Shown here one piece after another: positions 4,538-44,857 of a DNA stretch of 64,000 bases. The first letter of the stretch is position 1. Each line of letters opens with the position of its first letter. The notes below the pieces were generated by a model, which saw only the letters and a list, made by a program, of their open reading frames with translations, was not told where the DNA came from and searched no databases. The position numbers and the translations under genes were made by a program. Source of the DNA: Vairimorpha necatrix (taxonomy: Eukaryota); the NCBI GenBank assembly GCA_036630325.1, contig CP142728.1:620001-684000 (forward strand), in the 5' to 3' direction.

Positions 4538-5252
4538 AGACTAATAAATATTTTATTAATAAAAAGATTCTTCTTAAATATTATACGCCCGTTTTTTATG
4601 TTGTAAATAATATCATTTTTATTTCATGCTATATTTTACCAGGGACCAACAGTATGGCAAACTGCCGATGCCGTAGCATTTACGTTGAACTAGTATGGAA
4701 CTAAAATGACGAGTGGGCCAGACGTGTTATTCTCTTAGAACCCTGCTTAACGCAGGTCACAGATAGGAATGTTTGTGGTTCTAATCCCAAGAGATAGTTT
4801 TTCTCCTGCAAGTAAAGCCTTTATGGTATGCTGGTGTGTATCACAAGTTATTGGCTGTTGAAGTTTTTATTTGCTGGGAGGCTTTTCTTTAATCACAATA
4901 AAAGTTTTTTAGTTTTTTTTTAGAGACCAACAGTATTTTGCTGTTGCGATCTTCGTTTTGAAAATATCTATCTTCATAGTTAAAATGGCTTCTATGAGTC
5001 TCTTTATTCTTACTAAAGTGAAATTTTCTATATTTTTGGGCGGACCTGAAGCTTAGATATGTTTTAATTTATATTTAGTCATTGATTGCTGTAAAATTAC
5101 TCCAAATGGTCTTAATCTGATAAACGCCAGAAGTTTCTATTGTTTTTTATGCCTAAAAGTTTTATACTATTTTTGACTCTGTTGTTTATATAAGGATTTA
5201 TCATTGAATAGGGGTTTATTTATTTTATTATTTATAATCAACATCCCTCCCC

Positions 5253-7778
5253 TTATAGAATTAGCTCCTCGTCCACAAGTCTTTTTAGTTGCGAAGCATG
5301 TCTTTTGTAAGACTTGGTGCCAATTTTTATGCAATATGAATTTCCTTCCAATTTACTTAAGATACAACCCTTTTTCCAATATCTCGGTTTTCCCTTTGTC
5401 ACGTTTTCGTTCTTTATTAAAACCGTATTCCCAACAGTAAAGACCTCTTCCTTCGGCAATTTCTCTGTTGCTTTTGAATAATTTAATATATTGTTAAATT
5501 GTGTTTTTTTAACCGTTTCTGCATATTCTTTATCTAAGGCTTCGTTTGGTGTACATCCCAACCCTACGTGATAAGAATTATTATAAATTAGAATAGCTTT
5601 CTTTACTTTTGTTTTTAAAAACTTGTCACTTTCGTTTTTATATACCATCTCTTGTAGAGTTCTATTAAACCTTTCCACTCTTCCGTTCGATTGATGATGG
5701 AATGGTGTCGTGTAGTGTAACTTGATATCATTTGTATTTGCAACATTTTTAACACAGTTGCTTAAATTTTCTTTTGAGCAATCCAAAACAAGAGTTTTAA
5801 TTGGTAACTCTTTATTAATTTCCATTATAAATTGGGCTATTTTTTGTCCAGACCTATCGTTAATACACTTAGCAAATCCCTTTCTGGTGTAGTAATCTAA
5901 TCCTGTTATTATATAATTTTTGTCTATAGGACCTATAATGTCTATTCCCACCTTTTCGCCTGGATAATACGCTGTTACGAATATAAATTTTTTGTTTTTC
6001 TTCGGATTATACATCTTACATATGGTACAGTCAGCTATTGCCTTTTTGGTTAGCGATTTGATATTAGGCCATTTATATTCGTTTTCTAAATTATAAATAA
6101 TTGTTTTTGCACCTCTATGTAGCATTTCTTTATGCTTTTCGAATATTAATTTAATTTTTTCTTGTTCTGATATAGGTTCACTTTCCTTCACTTCGTTAAC
6201 AATATTTTCTTTTCCTTCAAAGCTCCTACTAAGAGCGTCCACGTGTGACATTTCTTCACCTTTTCTATAAATCACTTTAAATATAAAGTTGCTAAGTCGA
6301 TCTAGCCATCTGTGGATTCTCAGAGATTTAATTTCTCCTTTGTTAAGTGCTTCCAGGGCCTTGTGATCTGTAATAGCAGTAAATTCCTTTCCATATAGAT
6401 AGTATTTAAAATGTTCCATTCCCCATAGCATAGCTAGACATTCTTTTTCACTTATTGAATAATTTCTTTCGGGAGGATTTAGACTTCTTGAAGCAAATGC
6501 GATTGGGACCTTGACTCCCTTGTCGACCTGGGCCAATATAGCACCTAGACCTGTGTTTGACGCATCTGTTTCCAGGATAAATTCAAGATTGTAATTCGGC
6601 TGATGTAGCTCTATTTGTTTACTTAATACCTCCTTTAATTTTTCGAAGCTGTTTTGGTGTTTTTCTGTCCATATGAATTCTACTCCTTGCTTTAATAGAT
6701 TGTATAGTGGCTCACATAACGTTGCGCAATTGCGAATGAATTTTCTATTGTAATTTATCATTCCTAAAAATTCTTGAAGTTTTTTCTTATTCTCTGGTTT
6801 TTGAAATTCGTTTATAACTTCTATTCTCGATTTTTCGGCCGATATTTTATTTCTTTCGATATTGTATCCTAAAAATTTTATTTTATTAACTTTTGAAACT
6901 GTTTTCTTTTCGTTAATATTGAGATTGTTGTCCTTTAATATTTTTATTACTCTGCATAAGTTTCTATCGTGTTCCTCACTTGTTTCTCCGAAAATTAAGA
7001 TGTCATCTACGTAAACGATACACGCCTTCCCTATTTCATCTTTTAGAACATGATCCATATATCTCTGAAATATGGCCGGGGCATTCTTAAATCCCATTGG
7101 CATTACTTTCCATTCATACAAGAAATGCTTAAATCGAAAAGCAGTTTTATGTTGATCCTTTTTCGCTAGAGGAATGTTAAAGAAACCATCTTTCAAATCC
7201 AATTTTGTAAAAAATTCTTTGTCTCTCAGATTAAATACCAAGTGTTCTATATTAGGTAGGCTATATTTGTCTAATTCTACCAATTTGTTTAGTGCAACTA
7301 AATTAAGTGTTATTCTTATACTGTTATCTGGTTTTACTACTGGGCGAATGTTATTTAGCCATGTAGACTTCGATGGGCCTATATAATTCATTTTTATCAA
7401 ATTTTTTATCGTATCTTCCATTCCAGATTCAAATTTCTTGGGGAAGCTAAATACTTTCTCTACAACTATAGCGTCTTTTCTTGTATTTATTTCACATTCA
7501 TACTGATCCTTAGAGTTTATCATTACTTTAATTCCATCTTTTCCAATCAAAATTTTTTCTTTGGATACTTTTGGTAAAATAAAAAATTTTAGCTGATATT
7601 TCGTATTTTTATAAGAAACGTCACATAAAACATGATACTTAACTTCAAAGGTTTCTTCAAGACAGGTTCTGAATTTCAATTTGACATGGTTTTTTCTTCT
7701 TTTTAAACCAGCTTTTAATCTAACTGTGTCAGAAATAAAATTGTAGTTAGATCCTGTATCAAAGACTACTAAAAATTT
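5253..7778 (-). CDS. Pol of element 1: aspartic protease, reverse transcriptase, RNase H, integrase
   Basis: The frame is open from 7778: KFLVVFDTGSNYNFIS (protease), LDLKDGFF / YVDDILI (RT), ETDAS / YSISEKE / TDHKAL (RNase H), H-H-C-C then GIDIIG / SNGRVERFN (integrase). Confidence 0.93.
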   Translation of the reverse strand, partial: KFLVVFDTGSNYNFISDTVRLKAGLKRRKNHVKLKFRTCLEETFEVKYHVLCDVSYKNTKYQLKFFILPKVSKEKILIGKDGIKVMINSKDQYECEINTRKDAIVVEKVFSFPKKFESGMEDTIKNLIKMNYIGPSKSTWLNNIRPVVKPDNSIRITLNLVALNKLVELDKYSLPNIEHLVFNLRDKEFFTKLDLKDGFFNIPLAKKDQHKTAFRFKHFLYEWKVMPMGFKNAPAIFQRYMDHVLKDEIGKACIVYVDDILIFGETSEEHDRNLCRVIKILKDNNLNINEKKTVSKVNKIKFLGYNIERNKISAEKSRIEVINEFQKPENKKKLQEFLGMINYNRKFIRNCATLCEPLYNLLKQGVEFIWTEKHQNSFEKLKEVLSKQIELHQPNYNLEFILETDASNTGLGAILAQVDKGVKVPIAFASRSLNPPERNYSISEKECLAMLWGMEHFKYYLYGKEFTAITDHKALEALNKGEIKSLRIHRWLDRLSNFIFKVIYRKGEEMSHVDALSRSFEGKENIVNEVKESEPISEQEKIKLIFEKHKEMLHRGAKTIIYNLENEYKWPNIKSLTKKAIADCTICKMYNPKKNKKFIFVTAYYPGEKVGIDIIGPIDKNYIITGLDYYTRKGFAKCINDRSGQKIAQFIMEINKELPIKTLVLDCSKENLSNCVKNVANTNDIKLHYTTPFHHQSNGRVERFNRTLQEMVYKNESDKFLKTKVKKAILIYNNSYHVGLGCTPNEALDKEYAETVKKTQFNNILNYSKATEKLPKEEVFTVGNTVLIKNENVTKGKPRYWKKGCILSKLEGNSYCIKIGTKSYKRHASQLKRLVDEELIL

Positions 7779-8483
7779 TTAGTCTTCGATATAAACTAAA
7801 TTCTCTTTATTGATCATCTCTTCTGAGTCTTCTAAGACTTCATTTATTTGAAGCTGCTTTTTGTTATCGTATTTCTGCTTAATTATATCATTTCTAACTT
7901 CCTTAGAACCATTACGACCAGATTTCTTATTTCCTTTTTCTTCTCTTCCCAAAATAGTCCTTATCTTATCGTTCAATTCTTTATCAATTTTTTCCATCAT
8001 CAGAACTCGCTTAAGGTCGATATCATTTAAAGAACAACAGCTCGTTATGTATGCTCTTAAATTTGGAAATTCTCTTCTTATCCCGAGCATTACAATTTTC
8101 ATAGATTCTTTTGAGTCCATTTTTACTACTTTTGATTTCTTTTTAACTTCGTCAATGAAATCTTTTGCATTCTGGTCCTTTTTCTGAAAAAGGCGGTAAA
8201 CATCCACTAGTTCAATTTCATCTTCTTTAAATTCTTTATACAGTGCTTCTTTCCACTTGTCATATGTTATAGAGGAACTTCTTGTATGTTCCATAAATGT
8301 TGAGTGCCATTCAATTATTTCGTAACTGGCTTTACTCAAAACATACTCAATTTTATCCAATGATTCCATTTTTTTAAACCATCTAAATATTTCATATCTC
8401 ATCAATTCTTGGGATAAATTTTTCCTGTTTATACTGGGTTGATCATTATTCTCCACCATGTTGTTTATATAAGGATTTATCAT
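7779..8483 (-). CDS. Gag of element 1 (234 aa), in frame with pol and separated from it by one TAA
   Basis: ORF starts inside the 5' LTR; helical capsid-like region (YDKWKEALYKEF...QKKDQNAKDFI); same frame as pol (8483-7679 = 804). Confidence 0.85.
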   Translation of the reverse strand: MINPYINNMVENNDQPSINRKNLSQELMRYEIFRWFKKMESLDKIEYVLSKASYEIIEWHSTFMEHTRSSSITYDKWKEALYKEFKEDEIELVDVYRLFQKKDQNAKDFIDEVKKKSKVVKMDSKESMKIVMLGIRREFPNLRAYITSCCSLNDIDLKRVLMMEKIDKELNDKIRTILGREEKGNKKSGRNGSKEVRNDIIKQKYDNKKQLQINEVLEDSEEMINKENLVYIED

Positions 8484-10019
8484 TGAATAGGGGTTTATTT
8501 ATTTTATTATTTATAATCAACAGACTCAAAACATTCTGAGTTGCCAAGAGACGTAACACAGTGCATTAACCATATTGATAAATTTCTTACCTTTAAACTC
8601 TGTATGTAAAATTCGTTGGAGAGAGAGAGTAAGAAAGGATTCGTAACAGGTAACCGAGATAACAGTTAACACTGTTTAGATAATTAGTAAACAACTTTTG
8701 GGGAGATGGCAGTGTCGTGGCTTATTATTGTATAATCCATTTATAAGCAGAGTTCATTCAATTATATTTGACACACCCCAATCTCCCCATTACTTTATTG
8801 TTCCATTATAAACAATTAAAAAATCTTTTTAATATAATAAATATATTTTGGAATTGTTTCATGGGGCTGTACAAGTACATTTTCACAATTTATTGTTTGC
8901 CTTTTATTGTACAAGATATTATGTTGTTTTGCTTACCTATTTGATTTCTAAATGATTTTTATATAGAAGATCTGAAACATAAAGGCTTTAAAATATTGTC
9001 TCTTCATCAACAGTGGACTACCTTTTTTTATATATTATATTGTATAATATGCCATTTCGCTTGATCATAGCAGGTGTATCTATAACCATATTATAAAGAT
9101 ATAAATACGTATTAAAAACTACAGTTTATGGCTTAGTATTACATTTTTTTTTGTCAATTGTGCCCATCTACTAATGCCCTTTCGGCCTTGGCAATCTTAA
9201 TAGCATATCTTATGCAAATTATTAAAATTATTCTGTTATATAATTCAGTTTGCGCAGGGTTCGCCCATTAATTTAAACATACCCAAGTATGTAATCAATT
9301 TCAGATTTGTGAATATGTCTGACAAGTACTAGATTATTCGATTTCGACTGTAATAACAAGTATTTTTCTTTTTTTTACATATATCTTTGATTTTTATATT
9401 TATTCTTGATATACTTTACTTGTAGGTCTTTATATGCAATTTTGATATTTTAGGTATGCCTTACTTTACATTCTTGTTGTGATCTATTCGATTATTCATT
9501 TTTTTTACTTTTATATAATTAATTTTGTAATTTTTTTTAATTTTTATGTAGCAATAAAATCATATTTATAAAGGAATTTCAATGTATGTGCTGCATCATA
9601 TTAGATTTCAACATATAAATTGAGTTTATTTACAAAGCATTGAATCTACATTGGTGATATATTGTAGTATTTGTAAATATTTTTGACATTTACAATATTT
9701 AATTGTTACTAACAAATATTTTTTTGTACAATGTAGGCCTTAGAAATTTATATAAATGTAACGAAAAAATTCCCTTTTATCAATTTACATCACTAGTTTA
9801 CTATTTATAAAAGAATTTTATTTTTGCGGTAGATACTTAATTTTTAAAACTGTCGTTAAAATTTGAAAAAATCTATCAAGTATTTAGCATTATAGGTCTT
9901 TACGTAGACTAGATAAGAAAGAAAATAACCTTTTACAAAAGATTTATTTTCAGTATTATGAAAGTTGTTTTAAGCTTGAATTATAATTTAGTAAGCATTA
10001 AGGACTCTTCACCCTAGTC

Positions 10020-10860
10020 GGTCAAAGGAAACAATCAGGAGAGATCCGAAGTATTTTACTGCTTTCTACAGATAGAAATATTTTCTGGGGACAAGAGTCA
10101 CAATGTCCGAATTGTGGATCTCACAGGAATACCATGGATCATTATGTACCAAATGTGATTGAAGATTGATTTTGATTATATGAGAAGACACAAAGAGGCA
10201 GTTAGATGCATCTATCTTTTACTATTTATTAAATATTGGTTTAAGAAGATAAAGAAAATACGTGGACACTCAGTACAAGAGATCATGGAGAATTATCAAG
10301 CGGAAATTAGAGTAACTACGAGGATATTTACATATATAGAGGTATAACATAATAAGCCTGATATTTTATTGTTTGTTAAGAAGGAGGAAATAATTTTAAT
10401 AGTTTAAGTTGCTATAACCCCCAGGATCGACTTAATATAAACAAAATGAAAAACTAAGAAAACATGACCTTTTTACAAATGAACTGGGACTAATACATAA
10501 ATCTATGACAAGATTAGTTTCTTATATAATGACATTGGGTGGGATGGTGACCAAATATCACAGAAAGTACATTAGGGAGCTGGAAATCCAGCCCTCTGTG
10601 TTGAAGAAGATTACTGAGTTTCTCTCTTTGTAACAACGACGAGGATACGATCAAGAAGACTCAGGCGATAAAGAAGGGCTAGAGCAGTAAGCACACTAGC
10701 AAATATGGCGAGTGTTTAAGAAATGTTGTTGTTGATGGAGAATAAAGCTGAACCCCCGAAGTTGACCGACGAAAATAATTCCACAGAATCCATAGTCATT
10801 TAAGAGCTGAAATCCATGTGCGTACCACGAAAATTGTGAACAAAAATCTAGAACAAACGA
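10020..10860 (+). mobile_element. Degenerate 3' fragment of an RLE-type (restriction-like endonuclease) non-LTR retrotransposon
   Basis: Across stops and frameshifts reads LQDRNIFWG..QCPNCG..TMDH...C (CCHC), YMRRHKEAVRCI, HNKPDILL...VAI (PD-(D/E)xK), EKLRKHD...ELG, GMVTKYHRKY. Boundaries approximate. Confidence 0.8.
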
Positions 10861-11546
10861 AAAAATAACTCAAGTAACCATTTTTCTATCATTTACATTT
10901 AATATCGCGTAAAACTAGCACGTTTTAGGAAGACATATAAGGAATTTGAACCATATAATTTAAAGTATCACAAATGTATAACTATTGGCATTAGATCATT
11001 GACTAAATATGCTATAATAATACCTTAAAAACAATAACAAATAAACCAAAGTTAATAAAGCGCCTATTATGAGGTGTTGTTTTACAAAAGTAATTAGATC
11101 TTTGAACATTTCTTGTTCTATAATTCTCAGGTATAAATACAACTTTAGAAAAATTGAATTGCCAGATAGGAGTCAGAACCTTTCCTGCTTGGATGTATAA
11201 TCACTCTCGTGACAGTGTAGGCGTCGACATCAACATCGGTACTATTTCATAAAATAAACATTTTATTTTAATATTCTTCCTTAGTGATATTAGTATACTT
11301 TCATTGGGGCTTTTAATCTTCCTTTATGATACAATATTAAAAAAAATTTGTATGCAATCACTACACATGATACTATTATACTATTCGTATTTTCATGTAT
11401 TCTATTTCATTAATCAAAATTTTTTACTTTACAGTATTGGAATATCAAAAATCATTGTACCTTTAAAAATAAATGTAAAAATATATACCTGAAGATTTTA
11501 CACGTCGCATCAATTTTTAAATTATGATCTCATGCGCTATATGTTT

Positions 11547-12335
11547 TTTTTTTCTTGCAAGTAAGAGGTGGGGAGAAACCTTACATAGGGACCAGAGGGA
11601 TTTAGGTGTGATCCTCATCCAACTGGTACTGTGAGATTCTTACTCACTGAAACTCCCTCCATACAACTTGCCGGTGCAGCAAGCTCCGCCGTATCCATTC
11701 GACTTTGGCTCCAGGAGAACACTTTCCATTTATACCTCAAATCGCGTCCAGAGTGACCTCACGGCGGATATACTTAACGGGCATGGTTATCTATAACCCG
11801 AGGAGAGACATCATCGTACTGGCTCAAAGGTCCCTACAATCATCTGTATTGCACACACGGCTCCTTACACGACCACATCCCCAGCCCGGCGTTTTTATTG
11901 GGCTGCGTTGACCACCAGTCTCCCACTAGTTTCGGCCACCGCGTTACAGAATCTTGTAGGATAGGGTCCACGAAACCTTCTATTGCCCTACTTCGTCTAG
12001 TCTCTTAGTTAGCTCTAGAATCCCACTCTAGAGTGCACCAGCCATGGGATCCAACTAGGCCATACCCATTAGATACTTTTATGTATCATTAAGTCACCAA
12101 AGGGCGATACTGCTTTTTGGCCTTGAGGTGCGTTTCTACACTAGATGCTAATCCCCTTGTGGCTGGACACACACAAGTTTCATTATATCAACTTAATGAT
12201 TATCGTGGACATTTTCATCATCTGAGTTGTTCCAACTGCATCATAGAAAGTGGAAACAATTTTGGTGCCCCTGGGAATCGAACCCAGCCATTGCTCAATG
12301 GAAGCATAGCATTCTACCACTGGGCTAAGGGCACC
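11547..12335 (-). mobile_element. tRNA-derived SINE, full-length copy 1 (~790 bp)
   Basis: 5' tRNA-like head, non-coding GC-richer body, 3' end ...cttgcaag(A)n; 17-bp TSD tcatgcgctatatgttt at 11530-11546 and 12336-12352; second copy at 23310-24063. Confidence 0.9.
12263..12335 (-). ncRNA. tRNA-like head (Pol III internal promoter) of the SINE
   Basis: GGTGCCC/GGGCACC acceptor-like stem, A box TAGCCCAGTGG, perfect T arm CTGGG-TTCGATT-CCCAG (B box). D and anticodon arms are non-canonical, so the isotype is unresolved (CTTCCAT hints at Gly-TCC). Confidence 0.8.
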
Positions 12336-12623
12336 TCATGCGCTATATGTTTACACCTGTGTTATCAATAAGCCAAGATATTTTTTAAGACATTTCATGT
12401 AAAGTAGAAACCTTATTTTCAATGGGACTAAATAAGGTAAATAATAACGGGATCTAAAAGCGAAAGGTAAGATCATACAAATACATTGATTATAAGGCAA
12501 TTACAAAATTAACTGTTTTTCTTAAGCACATAAGCCTTTGTTTGCAATTAAAAATATTCAAACAAAGCTTAAACATAATTATATTGATACGCTTCTATTT
12601 TAATCGTCACAAAAAACATAATA

Positions 12624-15241
12624 TGTCTTTATTTATCATAAATTGGGGCCAATCATATCACAAAATATAACATCCCCCTTTAAGACGGTTAATCTCATAC
12701 TTACTCAACCCCCCTTTAAATCATAATGTCTTTTCTTCACCAGCCGTCCTGTTTCCAATCGTACAATATAAGAATCTCCTCCACAAATCGCGTAAATTTT
12801 CCCCCTCTCCAGAAATCGTCCTTTTTCATATTTAGTACATCCCTTCAAATTTTCTTTTTTCGCTACTCGTACTTGCTGATTCCCGTAAAACCTTTCTCTC
12901 TTCCATTTAACAAACTTCTTACTGTATCTTCCTTCAGGATCATTTTCTATCATAACTTTTCCACTAGTATCTATAATTGCCTCTTTAGGTGTACAATCTA
13001 TCCCACTGTGATAACTATTTTCATACAAATCAATCGCTCTCATAACCTTATCGTCAAAATCATCGCCTTTGATTTTCAAAATAGCTTCTCTCAATGTTCC
13101 TATTACTCTCTCTACACGTCCATTACTACGGTGGCTTTCTATGCTTATCTTCCTGTGAGCAATATCTAATCTTCTACATAATATTCTAAGATCCTCGTTA
13201 ACAAATTCCTTGCCAATATCGGTTATTATTTCCTCTGGTCGGTTTCCGTTCCTACATAAACTTTCTATAAACCAAGCAACATTCTGAGACTTTTTTCCTT
13301 GATGCTCATTCCCCAAATCAGTCTAGTATGGTAATCAACACCAATCAAAACGTACCTACATTCGTCGCGAAATTCAATCAAATCAAAAGCTACTTTCTCT
13401 AAATATCTACTGGTACTAATAAAATCACATCCGCCCGACTTCTTCCTATCATAAATTTGGCATCTTTCACACTTCAATAACTCATTATAAATCTCTGACT
13501 TCATCCCTAACCAATAGTAAAGCTTCTTCATCGCATAATAAACACTTCCAACACTACGATGACCTCCATTTTCGTGATATTCCATTATTAACTTTGCCCT
13601 ATTTTCCTCCTTTGGTATCTCTGCTCTTATACCACTATCAAAGACCCAGTATTCCTTTCCATCTTCATATACTGTATGTTTCTTCTCTTTTCCTTCAATT
13701 TGTTTCACTGTTCTTTTCTTTATCATTTCCTCTTTCTCAGTCTCTTCAACAGGCGCTCTACTTAACGCATCGGCCACTACCATTATATCTAGCTTCATGT
13801 ACTCAATTGTAAAAATCGAACTCTTAAATCTTTTCTATCCACCTATTAATCCTATTATTATCGAATTGTGGCTTTCTCCAGATTTCTATCAAAACTTTAT
13901 GGTCTGTTTCAACTTTAAATTTACGACCTTTTAATTCATATTCGAACTTTTTGATTCCCCAGTAGACCGCATACATCTCTTTCTCGCTTATTCCGTATCT
14001 TGATTCCGTGGGAGTAAACTTTTACAAAGCCCAATGTACCGGCACCCACTATTCTTCGTCATTCTTTTGCATTAATACCGCGCCCGTTCCTATGTCTGAC
14101 GCATCTGTTCTCAATAAAAACTCCTTTTCATAATTAACTATCTTCAACTTCCCCATTGTCTGTACTCTTTCTTTTCAACTTAACAAATTCAACTTTCATA
14201 TTTTCTGTCCATTTCCATTCGTTCTTACCCTTCAAACTGTCGGTCAAATGTACCGTTAAATTCGCATTTTTTTTTATAAAGCTTCTATACCATCCTGTTA
14301 ATCCTAAAAATCTCCTTACTTCTGACACGTTTTGTGGCTCTGGGAATTCTAACGCTTCGTTTTGTTTTATTTCAGACGGTGTTATCTCTAAACCATTCAG
14401 TGTAACCCCAAATAGCTTTACCTCCTTCAAGCATAACTGTACCTTATTAATATTAATCCTCATCTTATTATCTTCCAACTTCCTAAGTGCTTCTCCTAAC
14501 AATATATCGTGCTTCCCTCTCGTCGCTGCATGTATAACAATATCATCCATATACACTTCTATTCCTTTTCCCAAGTGTCTCTCAAACAATTTATTTATTA
14601 TTCTTTGTAAAATCTGCGGGGAGTTCTTGTATCCCATAACCATACTATTCCATTCATAAACCCTTCTATTAAATTCAAATGCAGTTTTATGTTCATCTGC
14701 CTCGTCGATCTCAATACTTTAAAATCCTTCCTTTAAGTCAATTACCGTAAAATATTTTGAACCCTGTGTTTTCTTAATTATGTCTCTTATATTAAAAAAG
14801 CCAAAAAAATCTTTTTTAACCAAATCATTCAAGGCCATCAAATTACTCACTAGCCTTATTCCGCCATCTGGCTTTCATAACGCTCTTATTGGATTTCTCC
14901 ATTTCGAATTCGACCTTCTTATTACCTTCCTCTTTTCCAGTCCTTAAATAAAATTTTCAGTATCCTCCATTAATGCTTGAGGTATGCACTGTCCTTTCTT
15001 CACTACTTTAGCACCCTCTTGTGTTTTTATCTTACATTTCTCAGATCCTCTGAATCCAAATATAAATATCTTTCAATTCAATCCCTTCCTGTTCTCTCAA
15101 TCCATACATAATAATACTAAACTCATTCCATATCATTCTGATCACCTGACCACAGTCCTCACTTGCTGACTTTTTGTTTCTTGTGTTCGCCATGTCTTTA
15201 TTTATCATAAATTGGGGTCAATCATATTACAGAATATAACA
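12624..15241 (-). mobile_element. Ty3/Gypsy LTR retrotransposon, element 2 (49-bp LTRs; internally deleted, frameshifted)
   Basis: LTRs 12624-12672 and 15193-15241 (3 mismatches); TSD taata at 12619-12623 and 15242-15246; PBS TGGCGAACAC; PPT next to 12673. Pol fragments: YMDDIVI (14134-14643), RNase H, integrase (13265-13798, 12705-13316). The gag start MINKDMANTR... is joined by a deletion near 15045 straight to the pre-RT region. Confidence 0.95.
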
Positions 15242-15965
15242 TAATATTAAATTCAAAAGAATTCATGGAAATGAAATTTAAGTGCGTTGATAAAATAACA
15301 ACATCAAAAACATTCAACAAAAAAGAATTGGATATCAATTTTAAAGCGACTAAACCAAACTTACGAAGAATGAAAGCATTCCACGTCTAATACTAAATTC
15401 CTAAGCTTCATACTTCTACGGCCTTTTGGATTTATTTTCGTTTGAATACAAATATCGAGACGGCGTTTTCAGCTTACACGATTGCTGGACTGAACTAGTG
15501 TTGTAATGTCTACAAAAAAAATGCAATTTTTTACAACGAAGACATAAAGTAAAAATTTATATTCAAATATTTAACTAATTTTGTTAAAACCAATGTTTGT
15601 TTGTGCATATAAAATATTATCTAAGAATTCATTTAAACAACTACATTGCTGGAAATAAAATATTAAAACAAATTTCAATTTCTATAGATAAACAATTGCC
15701 TTTAACACAATTGCGATAAAGATTAAAGATTAATTATCGAAAAATATAAACTTTTAAATAAAATGAAACGAAGGATGAAAAACTATTTATTGGTATTTCT
15801 GTCCATTTTTGTGATACAATCACATAATTTCTTTATACGTTTACACGCATTATCTTTGCCTTTATTATAAAAGACAATTAATTTATTTCCTAGAGTATAT
15901 ATGTCATTTAAAATTTCGTATATAGCGGGTCTGTGATTTTGAAATTTGTAATAAAAAATCCTATA

Positions 15966-18900
15966 TGTCTTTATTTATCATAATGGGGGATAGAAATTAT
16001 ACAAATATATCACATCCCCCCCTCAAGACGGTTAGTCTCATCTAATTTTCACATCTACCCCAAGCATACCCTTCAGATCATAATGTCTCTTCTTCACAAG
16101 CCTACCATTACTAAGTTTTACAATATAAGAATCCTTTCCACACTTTTCAACAATTTTTCCTGTATCCAAAAATCTTCCTTTTTCATACTTATTAACACCT
16201 GCCAAATTTTCTCGTTTAGCTATTCTTACCAATTGACCTTTGCTAAATTTTTCGATCTTTCCTTTTCCAAACCTATTACAATATTTCCCTATAGGGCTAT
16301 TTTCAAGCATTACGTCTCCAGTTTTATCTTCAGTCGCCTCTAATGGTGTACATTTTATTCCCGTATGATAGCTCTGATTATATACATCGATACTTTTATA
16401 TACTTTACCTTCAAAAGTTTTCGCATCCGACTTTAAAATACTTTCTCTCAAAGTTCCTATAACACGCTCTACTCTTCCGTTACTTCTATGCGCTTCTATA
16501 CTTACTTGTCGGTGTATAATATCGAGATCTCTACAAAATTTTCTAAATTCCACGTTAATAAACTCTTTCCCGTTATCTGTAATAATTTCTTCTGGTTTCT
16601 TCCCTTGCTCACATAATCTTTTCAAAAATCCAACAACATTATTACTTGACTTGTTATTTATAACTACTCCCCATACTCTACGTGTAAAATAATCGATAGC
16701 AACTAAAACATATTTCTTCTAATTTCTAAAGTCTATCAAATCTAATGCAACCTTCTCTAAGTATCTCGACGTATCTACAAATTCACAACCACCCATATTT
16801 TTCCTGTTATATATCTGACATTTCTGACACTGTTTTATAACCTCGTTTATTTCTTTCTTTACTCCTGGCCAATAGTATTCTTCTCTCATTGCATATTAAA
16901 CACTTGTCATGCATCTGTGGCCTACTTTTTCATGATATTCTTGGATTAATTGTCTCCTTATATTCTCAGGTGGTATTTCAACTTTACGTCCTGAGTCAAA
17001 TTGCCAATATTGCTTTCCATTCTCGGAAGAAACATGTGCTTTCCATTTACCTTCTGTTTGCTTGATTGTTCGCTCTTTATTTTTCATTTCTTTAATATCC
17101 TCTTCCATATTTATTCGACTCAACGCATCTGCTACCACCATCTCATCAGGTTTTTTATATTCCACGATAAAATCATATTCCTGTATCTTCTCGATTAAGC
17201 GATTTATTCTGTTATTATTAAAAAACGGTTTATTTCTTATCTCCACCAGTGCTTTGTGATCCGTTTCTATCTTGAATTTCCTACCTCTTAACTCGTATTT
17301 AAATTTATCAATGCCCCAATATATCGCAAGCATTTCCTTTTCTGATATTCCATATCTTATTTCGGTAGGTGTTAGCTTTTTAGATGCCCATTGTATAGCA
17401 ACCCATTCCCCATTCTCATTCTTCTGAAGTAACACCGCACCCAATCTCAAATTGCTAGCGTCTGTTCTTAGTATGAACTCCTTATTATAGTCCGGTAACC
17501 TTAGTCTTCCCATATTTCTTAACACATTTTTCATTTTAGTAAATTCCTCTTTCATCTCTTCCGTAAATTTCCACGAATTGCCATTTTTCTTCAAACTATC
17601 TGTCATTTTCAACGTCAGCCCGGCATAATCTTTTATAAATGGTCTGAACCATCCAGTCAATCCTAGAAACCTCCTCAATTCCGTCAAAGTTTTTGGATCC
17701 GGATACTCCAAGGCTTCATTTTTCTTTATTTCGTCGGCCGTCATGTCTATTCCATTCAGCGTCACACCTAATAATTTTACTTCCGCTTGTCTAAACTGTA
17801 TTTTCCCAATATTTAATTTCATTTTATTTCTCTTAATTCTTTCTATAACCTCTATTACTAATTCATCGTGTTTACGTTTATTGTTAGCATGTATTACTAT
17901 ATCGTCCATGTATACCTCAACACCATTTCCTCGCAAATCTTCAAAAATCATATTCATCGTTCTCTGTAGTATCTGTGGGGAATTTTTGTATCCCATCACC
18001 ATACTATTCCATTCGTAAACTTTTTTATTAAATTCAAACGCCGTCTTATGTTTATCTTTTTCTTCGATTTCAAAATGGTAAAATGCTTCTTTGCAATCAA
18101 CAACAGTAAATATTATCGACCCTTGCGTAGCTCTTATTATTTCTCTCATATTCGTTAGCTCATACGGGTCTTTCTCGACTAAATCATTCAACCCTATAAA
18201 ATTACTAACTACTCTTACTTCACCACTTGGTTTAAGTATCGCTCTTATTGGGTTTCGCCATTCCGAAGACGATCTTCTTATAATTTTTCTATTTTCTAAA
18301 TCATTAATATATTCCTCAGTCTGTTTGATCAAAGCCTGTGGGATCGTCTGTCCCTTTCTGACTATCTTCTTACCCTCTGGAGTATCTATCTTACACTTCT
18401 CTAATGTACAATAACTTATAACCTCATCCCCTTGTTTAAAAACTTCTTCATATTCCGCTTTGAGATCTTCCAACGTAAATTCCCTCTTCAGTAATCTTCT
18501 TTTCGTCTCTTTATTGCTCGCATATATTCTTTCTTTATGTCTTCTATCACTATTATTACATTCCTTTAACTTAACTCGTTTTGTCTTTCCACTTGGTTTA
18601 TATTCTTTATTGTCATTACTGCTACTACAACTTTGGTTTTCGTCTAAATTTAAGTACTTATTAAACTTTTTATTATTTTTCTGATTATTGTTCCTTCCTA
18701 AATAGCAGTTCCTAGCCATATGGCCAAATTTACCACAATTAAAACAATTCCTATTATTTCTTATTTTTTGTACTGTACTCCTTAAAACTAAATCTTTCTC
18801 TTGAATTTCTTTTCTCACTGTTTCTCTAACATTCTCAGCTATGACCTCCATAAGTTCTCTCCTATTTTCTTCTTCTTTTTTAGTTCTTTCTTCTCTACAT

Positions 18901-19184
18901 ATTTCCTCCTCTAATTTCTCAATTATTTTATAATATTCGTCCTCTTTACTAATTCTTTCTACCATGAAATTTTTTATTTCTTCACTTCCTTCCATAAATA
19001 TTCTCTGCTTCCACAAACTGATTTCTACTTCCTCCATCTCCAACCTATACATTATTCTTCTAACTTCCTTTATTAACTTTTTGGCCTCTAGACCACAGTC
19101 CACACTTGTAAACTGACGATTCGGTATCGCCCCCATGTCTTTATTTATCATAATGGGGGATAGAAATTATACAAATATTTCACA
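15966..19184 (-). mobile_element. Ty3/Gypsy LTR retrotransposon, element 3 (3.22 kb, 49-bp LTRs)
   Basis: LTRs 15966-16014 and 19136-19184 (1 mismatch); TSD ctata at 15961-15965 and 19185-19189; PBS TGGGGGCGATAC; G-run PPT from 16015. Confidence 0.97.
16038..19151 (-). pseudogene. Single-frame gag-pol of element 3 (Gag with CCHC knuckle, RT, RNase H, integrase) with two in-frame stops
   Basis: CFNCGKFGHMARNC; VDCKEAF / YMDDIVI; LRTDAS / TDHKAL; integrase ITDNGKEF / SNGRVER. ORFs 16896-19151 and 16038-16625 share a frame; stops at 16896-16898 and ~16719. Confidence 0.9.
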
Positions 19185-21088
19185 CTATATATTAATTCGA
19201 TTAAATCTGGCACATTGATATTATCTGTTATTTTGAAAATTTTCCAATTTAATAGCTCCAAATCATATTTTACCAGTAAAAAATCATACTTTATGTGTAA
19301 GTTTATTTTTTTCAGTGAGATATATTCGCTTACTTCTCCAATAAATTTTAGAGCATCAATAATACCATAATTACCAATAAAATTGATTTTTTCGATTTTT
19401 TCTACAATTGATTTTGTCTTTTCTATAATATCCCTTTTGTACCTTGAATTAAAATTAGAAATAGATTTTCTAATTTGTAATATTTCCTTATTAGCATTAA
19501 AAAAATAACAACCTAAATTTCTAGTTGGTATAGGATTACGTTATAGATATTCCTGTTCTTGTTGCTTAACTTCGCTAAATTTTTGTTCCATTTCCATTAT
19601 TTTTTTTTCTAGTAATGAATTATAATCTTTTTCACCTGTATTGTTTTGATTGCATTCGTTCCTAAGAAGTTGTTGAAAATTGTTGTCATAAAAAGATTTA
19701 TCATTTGTTAAAATACTTTTATCTATAAAATTTTCATTGTCATTCTCCGTTTCCTCTGCATTTTGCTGTATAATTTCATTATTGCATATAAAAGTAGATC
19801 TGTCCTGATGAGAATTCTCTTCATTTTTACAAATTTCCGACATATCCTCAGAAACTTTAAGCATTAATTTTTCATTTGTTTGAGATATTTTGTTTTGTGA
19901 AAAGTTCTCTCCGCATTTCAAAGAATTAACTAAGTTTTTTATTTGCAATTCTTCTGTAGTTTTTTTGTTTTCATAATAGCAAGTTTCGTTAATAGTTAAT
20001 CTCTTATGATTTTCATAGTATTCCATTATATCCTCAACATGCTCATTCTCTTCATTTTCATTATAATTCTCTGCCATAATTGTATCAAAATCAAACTCTG
20101 TGTTGCTATCCATTTGATTATAGTTAAGTGATTGTTGAAATATTTTAGTATTATATGTATTAAACATGTCGTTTGAACATTTTAGCAGAAAAATATATAA
20201 AAACATGGGGATAAATCATAAAAATTTTTTATTATGATAAAAAAATCATTTAACATAAATTGACGGTTTTTTTGTTTTAATTGATGGATAAATTCTAAAA
20301 GATCTATAAGGTTATCTGGTTTTATCGTTAATTTTTTTCTCCTTATAATACACTATTAAATACTTTTACAGACATATAAAGGAGCAAAAAAATTAAATAT
20401 ACCAAGGGGAACATAGTTGTGTTTTTTATGATAAAATAAGTGAATGGAAAATTTTTATGTTTATTTATCGCCCTGATATAGTATAATTACTGACATAGTT
20501 TTTATTGCCATTTACTTCTTTTTACACATATATATATATTAGAAAAATGGATATTTATTATCTATAGATGTTCGTTTTATAACTTAAAATTAAGAGTTTT
20601 AATTTTGAAATTATCAAGAAATTCAATTTTAGCATCCAGAATATCATGAAATTTATTTCCCATATAATTAATTCAATCTTTTTGAAACATAAAATTGTTC
20701 GAAGCATTTTTATAAATATGACTATAATATTCACTTTCGTTCGATAAAAAATGTTTCTGTGTTGTACTTGACTTATGTATTTTATTTGTAAATTTCTTAT
20801 TTATAAAAAGTAATTTGCTACATAGTATTTATATACAAAAATTACGTATTTATCATAGAAATAATGTATTAACCAAATTATATTACAAAGTTTAACGAAA
20901 AAATATTCAAAAATTTAAAGACAAAAGAAACATGCATTAACTTTAATTGACGAAGATATTTTATACATTAGAATATAATTTTTTATAACATGTACTTATA
21001 CAATAATTTTTTCTTAAAATGTTGCAATAAATTTTTTTTTATTATAGAAAATTATAAATACATAAAGTATTACTTAAACATTTATTAA

Positions 21089-23309: not shown

Positions 23310-24063
23310 TTTTTTCTTGCATGAAAGAAGCAGAAAGAAATCTTACATTTAAAGGAAGGAGGATTCGGGTGTAATCCTTATCCAATTTTTAATGTAAGAT
23401 TTAACTCACGAAAATTCTCACCTTAGACTTGTCTTATAATACAAATATGGTACCCGGGGACCGCTAACGTCTATACCCCATATCACTTCCAGAGTGACCT
23501 CACAGCGGATATACAAAACGAGCATGGTTTTTATAAACCAGAGAGATACATTAATATAAGTGCAAAAGGCCTCTATGATCATCTGTGTCGTACACACAGC
23601 TTTTACTCCGCCACATCACCAGCTCGGCATTTATTGGACTGAGTTGACCACAAGTCTCACACTAGTTTCGGCCACTGTGTTATAGAATCTTCTAGATAGG
23701 ATCCGCGAGACCTTCTATTGCTCTACTTAGTCTAGTCTCTTAGTTAGCTCTAGGATCCCACTCTAAAGTGCACCAGCCATGGGCCCCAACTAGGCCATAC
23801 CCATTAGATACTTAATGTATAATTAAATCACCACAAAAGTGGTACTGTTTTTAGGCTTTTTTTTTGGGGGGGGGGTGCGTTTATACACTAGAAGCTAATT
23901 TCCCTGCGGCCGGACACACACAAGTTTCATTGAATCAACTTAATGATTATCGTGAACATTTTCATCATCTGAGTTGTTCTAATGCATCATAGAAAGTAGA
24001 AACAATTTTGTAACCCACCTTTGCTCAATGGAAGCATCGCTCGACCACTGGGCTAAGGATACC
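23310..24063 (-). mobile_element. tRNA-derived SINE, older diverged copy 2
   Basis: Colinear with 11547-12335 (shared ccagagtgacctcac, cactagtttcggccac, tctagtctcttagttagctctag, ggacacacacaagtttcatt, ccactgggctaagg). The T arm/B box is partly deleted near 24010; no TSD recognisable. Confidence 0.88.
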
Positions 24064-25634: not shown

Positions 25635-25726
25635 ATAAAAGAAATGAAAAAATAAATGAGTCTTTTTAATATTAGTAAAATTTGTAGAATTGAATTTCTA
25701 AATTAATAATAAAAATGATTTTTTGT

Positions 25727-36232: not shown

Positions 36233-36309
36233 TAAGTGGGGCATTTATAATTTTTTTATTAAAATTTTAAAAATATTTATATACTAAAATAAATGAATAT
36301 AATGAGGGT

Positions 36310-38876: not shown

Positions 38877-39928
38877 GGCTAAAATCAGCATTATTGTAAA
38901 AAATGGGGGGGTCAAAATTTTTAAAAAATTGCCCCTTTTTTAAAAAAAAGGAAGGGAAGAGAAAACTTCAGAAAAAACGAAAAATGTAATTAAGATATAA
39001 AAATATAATAAAATTGTATTAAAATAAGTAGAATATATCAAAAACATAATTTTAATAATGCTTCAAAGGCGTCTTGAATCTCATTTCTTTTAATCATATA
39101 TAGAGTTAAATAGATTTCAGAAGTTCATTTGTTCTACACCTATTGGGTATAGAGGCTTTTAAAGATCTCCAATTCCCTTCGATGGTGTTTGTATAGACAC
39201 CTGTTTCATTTTTTCTGAATGTTTGACTGTGATTCACAGTTCTATGGTCCGCATAATGGCTTTTTAAGGTTATATATGCCTTCCACATATCGGAATGAAT
39301 AATGGATTTTAAATTTACATGCTTAAATAAGATTGGCAGCAATGTATCCTTGTTTCTTTTATTTATTATGACAATATTTATCTTCTTTTCTACCATCCCG
39401 AAACACCAAAAACCTTTGACCAATCTTCCGCTGTGGTATTTATTCTTACCTATTTTGCTTTCATCGATCTCCACTATAATATTTTCACCTCCTATTTGTT
39501 TTGTCTTATTTAAATATTTCTCAAAATTTTTAATTTATATAATTTCTCAAGTGTATAACATACATTTTGAATATTACAGTCCAAAATTTTAGAAATATGC
39601 GCTATTTTAAGTCCCATTATCCATAGATTAACAATTTTCAGCATAAGAAGATGATCTATCTTACTATTTGAAAATAAAGTATTATTCCAAATTGAAAATC
39701 TGTGGCCACATTTGGGAAACTTGCATCTCAAATAAGCTGTTTCGTTTGATACTCTAGATGTATTCCAACCACAAATTGAACATTTCTGCTTATATTTCTT
39801 TAGTAGCAGACGTTCGTAAAAATCTTCAATTTCTTCATTGCTTAGCATTCCATTCTTTTTTTAAAAAGGGGGCAATTTTTTAAAAATTTTGACCCCCCAT
39901 TTTTTTTACATTAATGCTGATTTTAGCC
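38877..39928 (-). mobile_element. Merlin DNA transposon, frameshifted transposase
   Basis: ~75-bp TIRs starting ggctaaaatcagcatta (38877) and ending ...gctgattttagcc (39928). ORFs 39510-39848 (zinc ribbon) and 39106-39474 (EIDESK, HSDMWKAY, TNTIEGNW). TSD not clear. Confidence 0.92.
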
Positions 39929-40055
39929 CCAAATTAATTAAATACAAAATAATTAAAATAAAGATCAAGGTGATTTTTTGCAAAAAATAATCCTAAACTA
40001 ATTTATAGAATGATGACCCTCATTGATTCGGTATAGAAAGTATATGAACAATGTT

Positions 40056-40898
40056 TTATTTGCTATTAAATATCTGATTGATTTTTTCATAAGTTTCCTT
40101 AGCCAAAGTCGACTTTTCAGATAAGGCAATTAATTTATCTCTTATCGAATCAAGAATCGTATTTAATCCGACCTGTGCATTAATATCTTCGCATTTATAC
40201 AATGTCAATTCATATTTAATTTTATCAAAGGTTTCCAATATTGGTATATAATTGAACAAAGAATATATTTCTATATTGTAATTATGAATTATAATTCTGT
40301 AGTCGTAAGAATAGCTCCCATTTATTTTTACTTTCTTATCATAAACTGTTAGAAAAAGGTCTAAAAGTTTTACGAATTCTAATAGTATGTTCCTAATCTT
40401 GATAGATAGTTTTAAGTTTTTAATTTTATTTTTGATATTGGGCAATTGAATATTAATTAATTTATATAAAGAATTCCATTTAAGTCGCCCGATGGCCATA
40501 TAACATTTATGAGTGTTTTTTTCATGTTTATTTTTTAACTTAACTTTTGAACATGCGATCTTTTTTGGTTTTTTCTGTTCCATTGTTTCAATAAATTGTT
40601 CAATTTTCTTTTGGCAGTCAAATAATTGTTTTTTTATATTTTTAATCACATTTCTTAAAATTTGTGAATTGCATTTTTTTGAAGCTTGCATACGTAATGC
40701 TTCCGTTTCCGAAACGTTAGAAAGATTTCGATCGTTTTCTTTATTTATATTATATTCATGATACATCCTATTTTGTAATTCGATTGGTGAGTAATATAAA
40801 GGTACATAATATAGCCGAATATTACCATTTGCGTCATTTATCTCAGAACTGTTGGTGATATTTTGAGCACATAAGATGATATTTAGTATGCAAATCAT
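40056..40898 (-). CDS. Family B putative secreted protein (280 aa)
   Basis: Hydrophobic start [11 protein letters not shown], ccc motif 5 nt upstream, Lys/Asn-rich helical body; paralogue at 29213. Confidence 0.85.
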
Positions 40899-41299
40899 TT
40901 TTAGGGCAAATAAAAACTAGTTTTTTGACTCTGTTTAATTTTTCTTTAAAATTTAAGGAATCATTTAACTGTTTAAGAGAATGATGAGAGATTTTTTAAC
41001 TGGTCTATTTCAAGGGATTTGCTGATGATTAACACAACATTTTTTCCATCAGAATTAAAAATGATAAATTGAAAATACTTTTGGTTAATTAACAAAAGAA
41101 ATTGAATAAGAGAAATTTTTTTTTATATTATAGTGAACATTCGATAATATGGTATACTTTTATTGTCAAGCTCGATCTTATGTTTCGATTTAAGTAAAAT
41201 CAGTTCTTATGCAATCGATTTTTTAACTTCATTAAGTCTAGTCGATATACTTTAGTGGAATGGGAGAAAATAAATTATCTTTTTATAGATAATTCTATT

Positions 41300-44200
41300 T
41301 GTTGTAGTCGGAATAATTACCGAAAACCATTATTTATTTATTTTTTTATTTATTCAATTTGTAAAATATCAAATGATATTTAATATATCAGTGATTGACA
41401 TGCTATGCTCAACACTCTTCCTTTCTTTCAAAAAAAAATATTTTCTCACGTTACTTAGGTTCGAAGTAATTATCTTTCATCTGTTAGCTTGATGTCAACA
41501 GATCCAAACCTCTTAGCTATAATTGTTCAACTAAAGTTATAATCTGCTGCTAATTTATGTTCTTTACTGACTATTGATTATAAAGTATATTATCTCCAAC
41601 TTTAATTTCTTCTCTAATTCTACTTCTTGCCGGTTTTAGTAACTTGTTTAATATTGAATTATGTGCTTTTTTTGTTGTTTTGACATTTTCTTCTTCGTTT
41701 ACATTTCCCGCGGTGAACAGTTTATTCCTCGATAAAATAAATCCAGATATACTTCCAACGTTTTCTTAATGCATTGCACCTAGTCAATCCTCCCAAAATT
41801 TGACGCCTTTTTGAACTTTTCCACAAATGTTCTGTTGAATCTCTCTACTAACCCTGTAGTTGTAGGTGTAAATGGTGCCCCAGTCTCCATTCAATTTTAT
41901 GTATCGTTGCTAAATTTTTCATGCTCTGGTTCACGAACTCTTTTCCATTATCAGATATAACAACCTTTGGTGCGGCTAATTTTTTAATAGTTTCTTCGAG
42001 TCCCACACTCGTTTCCATTGCATCTTTAGTCCGCAATGGTATTACATTTGCTACCTTCGAAAAATGATCGATTATGGTTAACAAAGATCTATATCCTTGT
42101 TGACTTTGCGGTAGAGGCTTACTATGTCAATTTCCCGTATTTCGTTCAATTTATCTGCTCTAACCGGAATGATGCTTTTCTTGATGTAATATGACCCCAT
42201 CTGTTAACACTTAAGGCAATTTTGTATTGTCTTTATAACTTTCTTTTGTAAACCTTTTATTTTTTCTTTCCTTAAAACATGCATCATTGCTTTATATTAT
42301 CCATGTGCTAGCCGTTCGTGTGTCTATTTAACAAGTTTCGTAACTTCACTTTTTTCTTTTATGATTTTAATATTCTGCTGTTCTCCCATCATTCGACTTA
42401 AAGAGTCACTTGGATTATTCTGTACTTTAATATGTTCGATCTCTATATCATGTTCCTGCAGATAGAGCGCCCATCTCGCGAACTCTGTTTTCATAATTGT
42501 ACTCTTGAATAGAAATTTTATCGCACTATGATCTGTTCTTAACAGAAATTTCTTTCCAATTAAGTAAAGTCTGAAATGCTCAATTGCTTTGATTATTGCT
42601 AATAATTCTTTTTCTGTCGTTGAATAATTTTTTTCTGCCTTAGAATGCACTTTAGAATAATATCATAAGATTTTTCCCCTCTCTGTATCAATGAAAGTAT
42701 TGCCCCCGAACCAAGATCTGATGCATCTGTAGTAAGAATAAATTTTTCATTAAGATCGGGCATTCCAAGTACTCCCGTTCTTCCAATATTATCTTTTGGT
42801 GATTCGATGGCTTTAATATATTTGTCTTCATCGCTAATTCTCTTCCAATCTATTCTGAATTCTTTTTTATTAATCCGTAAAGGTATGTATTTTCTTTCGA
42901 AAAATTTTTTATAAACTTACTACAATAGTTAATCGTCCCTAAAAAAGATTATTATTCCCCTCTGTTTTGGGGAATTTTTAGTTCTTTAATCGCTTTTATC
43001 CTTTCTGGATCAATTCTAATCCCTCTATGGTCTACTACGTGTCCCAGTATTTGGATTTGCTTCTTTTCATATTCACATTTGCTATCGTTAAGCTTTAATC
43101 CTGCCTTATTAATTAATTCTAACACTTTTCTAACGTGATCCCTGTGTTCTTCCAAAGTCCTACTATATATAATAATGTCATCCATATACGCCATGGTGAA
43201 CTTCCCGAGGTACGGCTTTAATATTCGTTTCATCATCCTCTGGAAGTCGCTGGATCATTCACTAGACCAAATGGCATGTACATAAATTCATAAAGTTCAC
43301 CCCGCATGAAAAAGCTGTTTTTTCTTTATCATTTTCATCTGGTTATATCCGATAAAGCATCTAATTTAGTGAAAAAGATTGATCCGTCCAGAGATCCAAT
43401 ATCTCATCAACCCGAGGCCCAGGGTACGAGTCTTTTATCGTTATTTCATTCAGTCTTCTGTAGTCAGCGCATAACCTGTAATTTCCGTTCTTTTTCTTTG
43501 CCAGTACCACTGGGCTCCTCCATGGACTATTAGACTCCCGTATGACACCTTCTTTTAGATATTGTTTAACAATTTTCTTCGCTTCCTTTTCCGCTTCCGC
43601 CCCTAACCTATAACACGCGTTCGTTATTGGAGGGAGATTTTGAGTGATAATCCTATGTTCTCCCAGATTTTCTTTTGCACACTCCTTTTGTGTCCATTCA
43701 ATGCGACAGTCTATTCCAAATTCAATTTTGACTTTATGTTTCTTAAGGAAACCGAGACCATAAATCATATTTGAAGTCATATCGTTAGTTACTATAAAAC
43801 TTTTTTTGAAAACTCTTTCTCACATCGTGAACTTTTGTCTTGTCATACCCGAAGTTTTTATTTCAGTACCATTTGCAGAGATAAGGTTTCCTGTGTGTTC
43901 CAGATTGATATTCCTAATGTCTTTTTCTTTAATCAAGTTTACGCATGACCTGAGTCAACTAGCGCATGTACATCAAATTTCCCAATTTTACTACTACCGT
44001 GAGATCTTTATTTATAGTATTACCTAAGGGCCTAATAGCGTTGTAATAATTAAGAGATTTATTTTCATTATATTCATCCTCTTCTTTAATTTCCATTCCA
44101 ACTTGCCTTAACCTTGTTTTACGCCGTTCCTTTTTTCTTTTTTCACATTCTTTTTTAAAATTTCTTTTTCTGCGGCAATACCAACTCTCCTCATTACCCT

Positions 44201-44857
44201 GCACTTTGCATATTTTTATCGTTTAATCTTTGACCTTTTGAGGTAATGTCGTATACGTATTCGATTTATTACTACAATCTAGTCCTTCACCTGAATTATA
44301 GATATAGTTCAATGTACGTTCAGACGGCATATTCATCAAAAAAATTCCTCCAATATCATCGGGCAATTCTATTGAGTACGAATGCAATTAGGACATTATC
44401 CAGGAGTCTAGCTTTTATTGAAATTCTCCTCATTTGATCCAAGTATGATAAAAACGATCCCGACTGGTATAGACATCGTGCTAGATTTTTTATGTGCCCC
44501 ACACTGCTTACTCTTCATTTAATTTTATTTAGAAATACCATACACAAGAATTCAAATTGACAGTTCCATGGCACAGATTCCGCCCATATAGCTGCTTCCC
44601 CCGCTAAATGATCACGAAGGAAAAAAACCTTTCCCTCTTGGCCACAGTTTGTAATTACTACCCATCCCCTTATGTATGCCAAGAATGCATCAGGATCATC
44701 TTCTCTACTGTTCCTAAAGATTTTTTTGTTTGTCGTTGTCGCAGAACTGTTGTGGTCAGAATAATTACCGAAAAACATGGGTTTATTTATTTATTCAATT
44801 TATATTAAATATCAAATGATATTTAATATATCAGTGATTGACATGCTATACTCAACA
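41300..44857 (-). mobile_element. Ty3/Gypsy LTR retrotransposon, element 4 (110/115-bp LTRs, heavily decayed)
   Basis: LTRs 41300-41414 and 44748-44857 (TG...CA, several differences); TSD ctatt at 41295-41299 and 44858-44862; purine tract from 41415. Fragments of gag (44515-44778), protease (ALVDSG near 43960), RT (SPWRSPVVLAKKK, YMDDII), RNase H (TTDAS, YSTTEKE), integrase (ISDNGKEF). Confidence 0.93.

Follow-up and report, generated by a model that had tools for sequence, protein, structure and literature searches.

The locus examined here raises the question of how a retrotransposon can be expressed and copied when its long terminal repeats (LTRs) are as short as 49 bp and the start of its gag gene appears to lie inside them. 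The locus is a stretch of 64,000 nucleotides from the microsporidian Vairimorpha necatrix (contig CP142728.1 of assembly GCA_036630325.1, positions 620,001 to 684,000 of the forward strand), and this whole stretch is called the window. An earlier note on this DNA had described four Ty3/Gypsy elements on the minus strand, flanked by target-site duplications (TSDs), with LTRs of 64, 49, 49 and 110/115 bp. All four are found where the note had placed them (E1 to E4, Table 1). Each 5' LTR contains an AT-rich box, a CCC(C) motif and then an ATG that opens the gag frame, at 25, 16, 16 and 31 nt from the inner LTR end in E1, E2, E3 and E4, respectively, and the positions, distances and frame given in the note hold in every case. 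The gag-pol frame opens inside the 5' LTR or at its end and crosses the primer-binding site (PBS), and the passage through the LTR end and, in E1 to E3, through the PBS is borne out by the sequence. The frame ends at the polypurine tract (PPT), or within the 3' LTR in relatives. On balance, E1 to E4 are probably autonomous-type Ty3/Gypsy LTR retrotransposons whose non-coding parts have been squeezed near the minimum, with a host-type start and use of the ATG in the LTR.

The reality of the short repeats was verified by the structure of the elements and by alleles that lack them. LTRs of the TG..CA type, 5-bp TSDs and PPTs are present in all four elements. TGG follows directly after the LTR in E1 to E3 and in five relatives (L003, L012, L022, L018 and L008). 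The contigs of one DNA run holding E1 (X1) were compared with window positions 4800-19500. One X1 contig joins 5174 to 8523, so that 3348 bases are skipped, equal to E1 plus one TSD, with 5 letters that fit either side. Similarly, an X1 contig joins 15960 to 19185, skipping 3224 bases, equal to E3 plus one TSD, with intervening letters possible. Both joints are read by us as empty-site alleles. E1 and E3 are insertion-polymorphic within the sample, and because of these joints the 64-bp and 49-bp repeats are taken as true termini. The run may be the window's own sample and does not represent an independent organism; the empty alleles do not depend on the window sequence. A third X1 joint, which goes back 3279 and reads pol end, LTR and gag, was left unused, because a tandem pair, a one-LTR circle and the collapse of a multi-copy element during assembly would all account for it. 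No other element bearing a reverse transcriptase (RT) was found in the window by tblastn, and Rfam gave no match at its gathering score. The only tRNA called by ARAGORN in the window does not match the PBS-like stretches by reading.

Table 1 Features of the four window elements and of the related elements read as DNA. Positions are those of the window.
Feature	Position	Strand	Length	Details
E1, Ty3/Gypsy element	8522..5180	minus	3343 bp	LTRs, PPT and PBS-like stretch; TSD GAGTC on both flanks
E1 5' LTR	8459-8522	minus	64 bp	TG..CA; AT-rich box, CCCC, ATG at 8483
E1 3' LTR	5180-5243	minus	64 bp	0 mismatches to 5' LTR
E1 PPT	5244-5254	minus		AAGGGGAGGGA; pol stop directly 5' of PPT
E1 PBS-like stretch	8444..8458	minus		TGGTGGAGAATAATG; gag codons M-V-E-N-N
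E1 gag	8483 to 7779	minus		Starts at ATG 8483; followed by in-frame TAA
E1 pol	7778-5253	minus		Same frame as gag
E2, degenerate element	15241..12624	minus	2618 bp	TSD TATTA; LTR ATG at 15208
E2 LTRs	15193-15241 and 12624-12672	minus	49 bp	3 mismatches
E2 PPT		minus		AAAGGGGGA; before 3' LTR
E3	19184..15966	minus	3219 bp	TSD TATAG
E3 LTRs	19136-19184 and 15966-16014	minus	49 bp	1 mismatch
E3 fused gag-pol	from 19151	minus		Starts at ATG 19151; two in-frame stops
E3 PBS-like stretch		minus		TGGGGGCGATACC
E3 PPT		minus		GAGGGGGGGA
E4, degenerate element	44857..41300	minus	3558 bp	TSD AATAG
E4 5' LTR	44748-44857	minus	110 bp	CCC abuts ATG 44778
E4 3' LTR	41300-41414	minus	115 bp	
E4 PPT		minus		GAAAGAAAGGAAGAG; before 3' LTR
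L003				39-bp LTRs; TSD TTATA; PPT; TGG PBS; degenerate
L012			3364 bp	Identical 58-bp LTRs; PBS type as E1; one intact 1088-codon open reading frame (ORF)
L022				Identical 75-bp LTRs; CCCATG 10 codons before junction ATG, in frame; intact 1154-aa ORF
L018				176-bp LTR; GGGATG 16 codons before junction ATG
L008				Candidate 47-bp 5' LTR; in-frame ATG 6 codons before junction ATG
L005				Candidate 3' LTR of 49 bp
L006				Candidate 3' LTR of 38 bp; pol stop inside LTR

The coding capacity was analyzed with Pfam. E1 and E3 matched RVT_1, RNase H and integrase, in that order, and the same order (RVT_1, RT_RNaseH, integrase) was found in the proteins P0005 and P0014 and in the relative L012. The zf-CCHC family was matched in E3, P0005 and P0014. 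The E1 gag had no Pfam match; it is 95-98% identical to two annotated Vairimorpha necatrix proteins. The four elements had been assigned to three distinct families. E1, E3 and E4 are indeed diverged, with pol identities of 28-38% among them (about 30% for E1 against E4); E2 and E3 are better described as sister families, with 58-65% amino acid identity. A D-T-G motif lies past the E1 gag stop and is also present in L012, where the protease matches are weak only (Pfam, E 0.016-0.056). For P0005 and P0014, no aspartic protease family was matched even at E 0.1, and in 21 aligned E3-type polyproteins (window 16896-19151) the stretch from the CCHC knuckle to the RT lacks an invariant D-[TS]-G. At the gag/pol boundary of E1 (7776-7781), a lone in-frame TAA stands in the context GAC TAA AAA TTT TTA. 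This TAA is more likely a nonsense mutation than a site of programmed read-through, because the relative L012 is one open frame. E2 is frameshifted and has lost most of gag, and E4 is heavily frameshifted. The G+C content of the window, 22-36%, spans the 28.3% of the Vairimorpha necatrix genome (PMC10759460; this and the other papers cited by PMC number are represented here by the available parts of their text).

Relatives were collected via a search with the E3 polyprotein, which gave 88 homologs; N-termini were assessed for 60 homologs. The named best hits belong to Vairimorpha, Nosema granulosis, Enteropsectra and Pseudoloma, and the DNA of a few relatives came from a metagenome collection and two mis-binned metagenome-assembled genomes. 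E3-type homologs are single ORFs of about 1000 amino acids, and many homologs of this size sit on contigs of just 3.0-3.3 kb. In L012, the ORF takes up 3267 nt of 3364 bp (97% coding) and reaches its stop 18 nt into the 3' LTR. A terminal G-G-[DM]-[VL] is shared by at least 10 of the 60 homologs, and we read it as in-frame translation of the PPT and the start of the LTR; this is borne out in DNA for L006 and its protein P0032. The short-LTR relatives (39-75 bp) share the plan of E1 to E4 and are about 97% coding. A scan of viral contigs found no relatives, and a second scan of genome contigs found no new element. A search of representative proteins returned mostly multi-copy gene models of 2000-3500 amino acids and was not used for the N-termini.

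Two further compact Ty3/Gypsy-like elements of 4.1-4.2 kb, with ORFs of 1289-1309 amino acids, were seen (L014 and L020). Their first Met lies inside (L020) or just past (L014) the repeated contig ends, with no CCC directly before the ATG. A gag start within the LTR may be commoner than assumed.

A conserved block was also observed just 5' of the PPT. It has the pattern GACT..CCGTCTT..purines..GGGGA and is present in E3 (16015-16040), E2 (12673-12695), L003, L005 and L006. The block is common to otherwise diverged families, could form a 4-bp hairpin (AGAC/GTCT), and is translated as E-T-T-R-L-E-G-G in several homologs.

Two candidate start codons were compared within the 5' LTRs. The first is the LTR ATG behind the CCC motif. 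The second is the junction ATG, formed by the last LTR base (..CA) and the TG of the PBS TGG; it lies 5-8 codons downstream of the LTR ATG in E1 to E3. Nine 5' LTRs were read as DNA, and in eight of them an ATG stands past the CCC/GGG motif and before the junction; L008 lacks the motif, and its ATG is at the equivalent place. Seven of these eight LTR ATGs keep the gag frame, namely those of E1, E2, E3, E4, L022, L018 and L008; the frames of L003, L018 and L008 were taken from the distances between LTR ATG and junction ATG (5, 48 and 18 nt). At an expectation of 1/3, the chance of this result is about 0.003, or about 0.007 when E2 and E3 are counted once. Among the five ATGs upstream of the motif there is no such frame preference: two keep the frame, and a stop closes each of these. 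The in-frame bias implies a frame constraint, and therefore the LTR ATGs are presumably part of the RNA and visible to ribosomes. The gag frame of E4 has, for more than 80 codons, no ATG other than the one in the LTR, and there is no junction ATG; in the relative P0233, a comparably long N-terminus precedes the conserved IFRNSRE motif. The LTR ATG of the L005 3' LTR does not share its frame with the junction ATG, and the N-termini of P0023 and P0046 read MNLN..[DH]G. Because of these two observations, we read this family as using the LTR-ATG frame only.

The sequence in front of the LTR ATG resembles that in front of host genes. The earlier note had pointed to an AT-rich stretch and the CCC motif of the host before the ATG, and both are seen in all four 5' LTRs. 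The gap from the CCC end to the LTR ATG is 6, 5, 3 and 0 nt in E1, E2, E3 and E4. Similarly, CCC ends 0-7 nt before the ATG in 9 of the 13 non-element ORFs of at least 120 amino acids in the window. The background is low, with CCC within 13 nt upstream for 91 of 2342 window ATGs (3.9%). The AT-rich box and CCC are common to E1 and E4 over 14-21 nt, though these elements are otherwise unalike. In Encephalitozoon cuniculi, 5' rapid amplification of cDNA ends gave 5' untranslated regions (UTRs) of less than 7 nt; CCC sits shortly before the point where the transcript begins, an AAATTT-like box lies further upstream, and AAUAAA is the usual poly(A) signal, with cleavage about 20 nt after it (PMC2803860). 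CCC motifs are present in all Nosema species examined and are associated with expression (PMC11592040). The box and CCC in the LTR are read as a core promoter because of this E. cuniculi and Nosema literature.

The following expression and replication scheme is proposed. The LTR would hold little beyond this host-type core promoter. Transcription would start a few bases after CCC, as in host genes, a start placed from the host-gene literature (PMC2803860), and the stretch of 16-31 nt from CCC to the LTR end would be R/U5 and coding sequence at once. The ribosome would take the first AUG, which is the LTR ATG in E1 to E4 and otherwise the junction ATG (CA + TGG). Minus-strand strong-stop DNA would be about 16-31 nt and would transfer to the same short stretch of the 3' LTR. 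For the RNA 3' end, AATAAA lies in U3 in E1 and E4 and hence would be present only at the RNA 3' end; in E2 and E3 its place is in R, and the RNA would be cleaved beyond the LTR. The suggestion in the earlier note that so short a strong-stop DNA would strain the standard strand-transfer model can be dispensed with: short as it is, a homology of 16-31 nt falls in the range that retroviruses tolerate, and Ty1 is a precedent for gag running through the PBS. The standard model is stretched and not broken, because retroviral R regions of 12-15 nt suffice for strand transfer.

Several observations weigh against the proposed scheme. No intact copy exists among E1 to E4; stops, frameshifts or deletions are present in all of them. 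E4 has no TGG after its LTR. No TSD was seen on the contigs of L012 and L022, which may be assemblies across several copies. The placement of the poly(A) site is a guess. The LTR of the intact L012 contains no ATG, and the ORF opens at the junction ATG, 19 nt after CCC; in the degenerate L003 the LTR ATG is out of frame, 5 nt off. Among the 60 homologs, 11 begin at the junction Met, 23 have an in-frame Met upstream of it, and 26 are truncated or unclear. The 23 upstream extensions follow the pattern M-x(2-28)-[DYHN]-M and are 3-29 residues long (6 in 12 of them); gene callers favour the longest frame, and these N-terminus counts are soft and the extensions are not independent proof. An in-frame upstream ATG would be equally tolerated if only partly used. 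For E1 to E3, the junction ATG is still a possible start.

These observations bring up the alternative that gag of E1 to E3 starts at the junction ATG, which would be the start conserved throughout the group, with the LTR ATG tolerated and at most a minor start; the RNA may then begin downstream of the LTR ATG. All TGG-PBS elements read as DNA keep the junction ATG in the gag frame, the intact L012 and the 11 homologs mentioned above start there, and the N-terminal extension varies in sequence as well as in length, all of which agree with this alternative. Host genes, however, start at the first ATG 0-7 nt after CCC, and the frame kept by seven of the eight LTR ATGs implies that ribosomes see them. 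E4, without a junction ATG, and the family of L005, P0023 and P0046 also speak for the LTR-ATG frame. A main start at the junction ATG is considered less likely for E1 to E3, yet it merits serious weight. The interpretation in the earlier note stands in part. Conservation of the LTR ATG in frame across copies, which the note had proposed as a check, holds for seven of eight DNA cases and fails in L012, where it is absent, and L003. Near-leaderless expression adopted from the host is consistent with the real micro-LTR ends and the host-type signal; a start at the LTR ATG is no general rule.

A second alternative is that the micro-LTR has no working promoter, and that the element is copied from read-through RNAs of upstream host DNA with the whole LTR as the transfer repeat. 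U3, R and U5 would have to fit into very little space in LTRs of 39-49 bp. In E. cuniculi, overrun of transcription is documented, as are polycistronic RNAs (PMC2803860). Against this, the AT-rich box and CCC (GGG in L018, ACCG in L008) are found in every LTR at a fixed 16-31 nt from the inner end, in families that are otherwise unalike. Furthermore, as known for retroviruses in general, minus-strand synthesis requires an RNA 5' end to force the transfer. This alternative is judged improbable. Finally, it is hardly credible that the short repeats arose by chance or are what is left of longer LTRs in dead copies: all four window copies are damaged and no solo LTRs were found in the window, but the joints at the empty sites of E1 and E3 are exact, TSDs flank all four elements, intact relatives have identical 58- and 75-bp LTRs, and many homologs of about 1000 amino acids lie on contigs of 3.0-3.3 kb.

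The LTR-ATG reading was compared with known systems. Ty3/gypsy elements of Nosema bombycis, the Nbr elements, were reportedly described by Xu et al. in 2006. Microsporidian Ty3/Gypsy elements are known, including those with a single polyprotein (PMC4202319, PMC2474625, PMC13174016). The groups of Parisot et al. 2014 (PMC4202319) share the domain order and the single gag-pol polyprotein with the E3 type; in E1 a stop separates gag from pol, though L012, a relative of E1, is a single ORF. LTR lengths, start-codon position and PBS overlap do not appear in the available part of the Parisot et al. account of the microsporidian groups (PMC4202319). Similarly, the available parts of PMC2685015, PMC10759460, PMC12449221, PMC2474625, PMC3486916, PMC3614468 and PMC13174016 contain no LTR lengths. 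The available text of the Vairimorpha necatrix genome paper gives 109 transposable element genes only, with no LTR structure (PMC10759460). No description of LTRs of 39-64 bp or of a translated LTR end in microsporidia was found in the literature covered, with supplements and Xu et al. 2006 outside its scope, and the literature on short LTRs gave plant, insect and virus cases only.

The closest layout is that of yeast Ty1. Its GAG AUG reportedly lies in the U5 part of the 5' LTR; the LTR measures about 334 bp and the 5' UTR about 50 nt. The Ty1 PBS is inside the GAG ORF, as it is here (PMC4974528), and because of this the coding U5-PBS arrangement has a precedent. Only this layout is alike. 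In Ty1/Copia elements the integrase precedes the RT, whereas in E1 and E3 the integrase is C-terminal, and the LTRs here are 39-115 bp with almost no leader, in contrast to the longer Ty1 LTR and 5' UTR. Yeast Ty3 belongs to the same superfamily, is tRNA-primed and has its PBS beside the 5' LTR. It is 5.4 kb long, with UTRs at both ends and a PBS segment adjoining the 5' UTR (PMC4974528), whereas here the PBS and the LTR end are translated. Among plant Copia elements, the grass SMART element FRetro129 has an LTR of 85 bp and the autonomous FRetro64, of 5.2 kb, has LTRs of 76/90 bp. Both show TG..CA ends and 5-bp TSDs, and no coding LTR is reported for them in the available text (PMC3281118). 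Compared with these grass elements, the LTRs here go down to 39-64 bp in elements of 3.2-3.4 kb.

Other features of the window were also recorded. A repeat of about 500 bp occurs twice, at 11183-12655 and 23472-23982, 11.7 kb apart and with 81-92% identity. Its word depth in X1 is 117-405, compared with about 4-15 nearby. ARAGORN calls a tRNA-Met at 12263-12335 on the minus strand inside the repeat, and Rfam gives no tRNA there at its gathering score. The repeat may be a tRNA-like or SINE-like (short interspersed nuclear element) high-copy element, and the end of E2 lies 289 bp upstream of it. A host ORF with DUF5097 lies directly beside E1 (3080-4537, plus strand). Eighteen of the 20 long ORFs (at least 120 amino acids), host and element ORFs alike, are on the minus strand.

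At about 3.2-3.4 kb, of which about 97% is coding, microsporidian Ty3/Gypsy elements are, we tentatively suggest, possibly the smallest autonomous LTR retrotransposons. They would have LTRs of 38-75 bp, leaderless expression, a translated R-U5-PBS, a strong-stop DNA of about 16-31 nt, one AT-rich box acting as promoter element in the 5' LTR and as poly(A) signal in the 3' LTR, and, in the E3 type, no recognisable protease. If true, the elements would set a new lower bound on the content of an LTR, would represent an adaptation of retroelements to a host with near-leaderless mRNAs, and would provide a natural test of the minimal R/U5 for first-strand transfer. With their default minimum of about 100 bp, LTR finders would overlook such elements. 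The retrotransposon content of microsporidia and its recent activity may be under-annotated.

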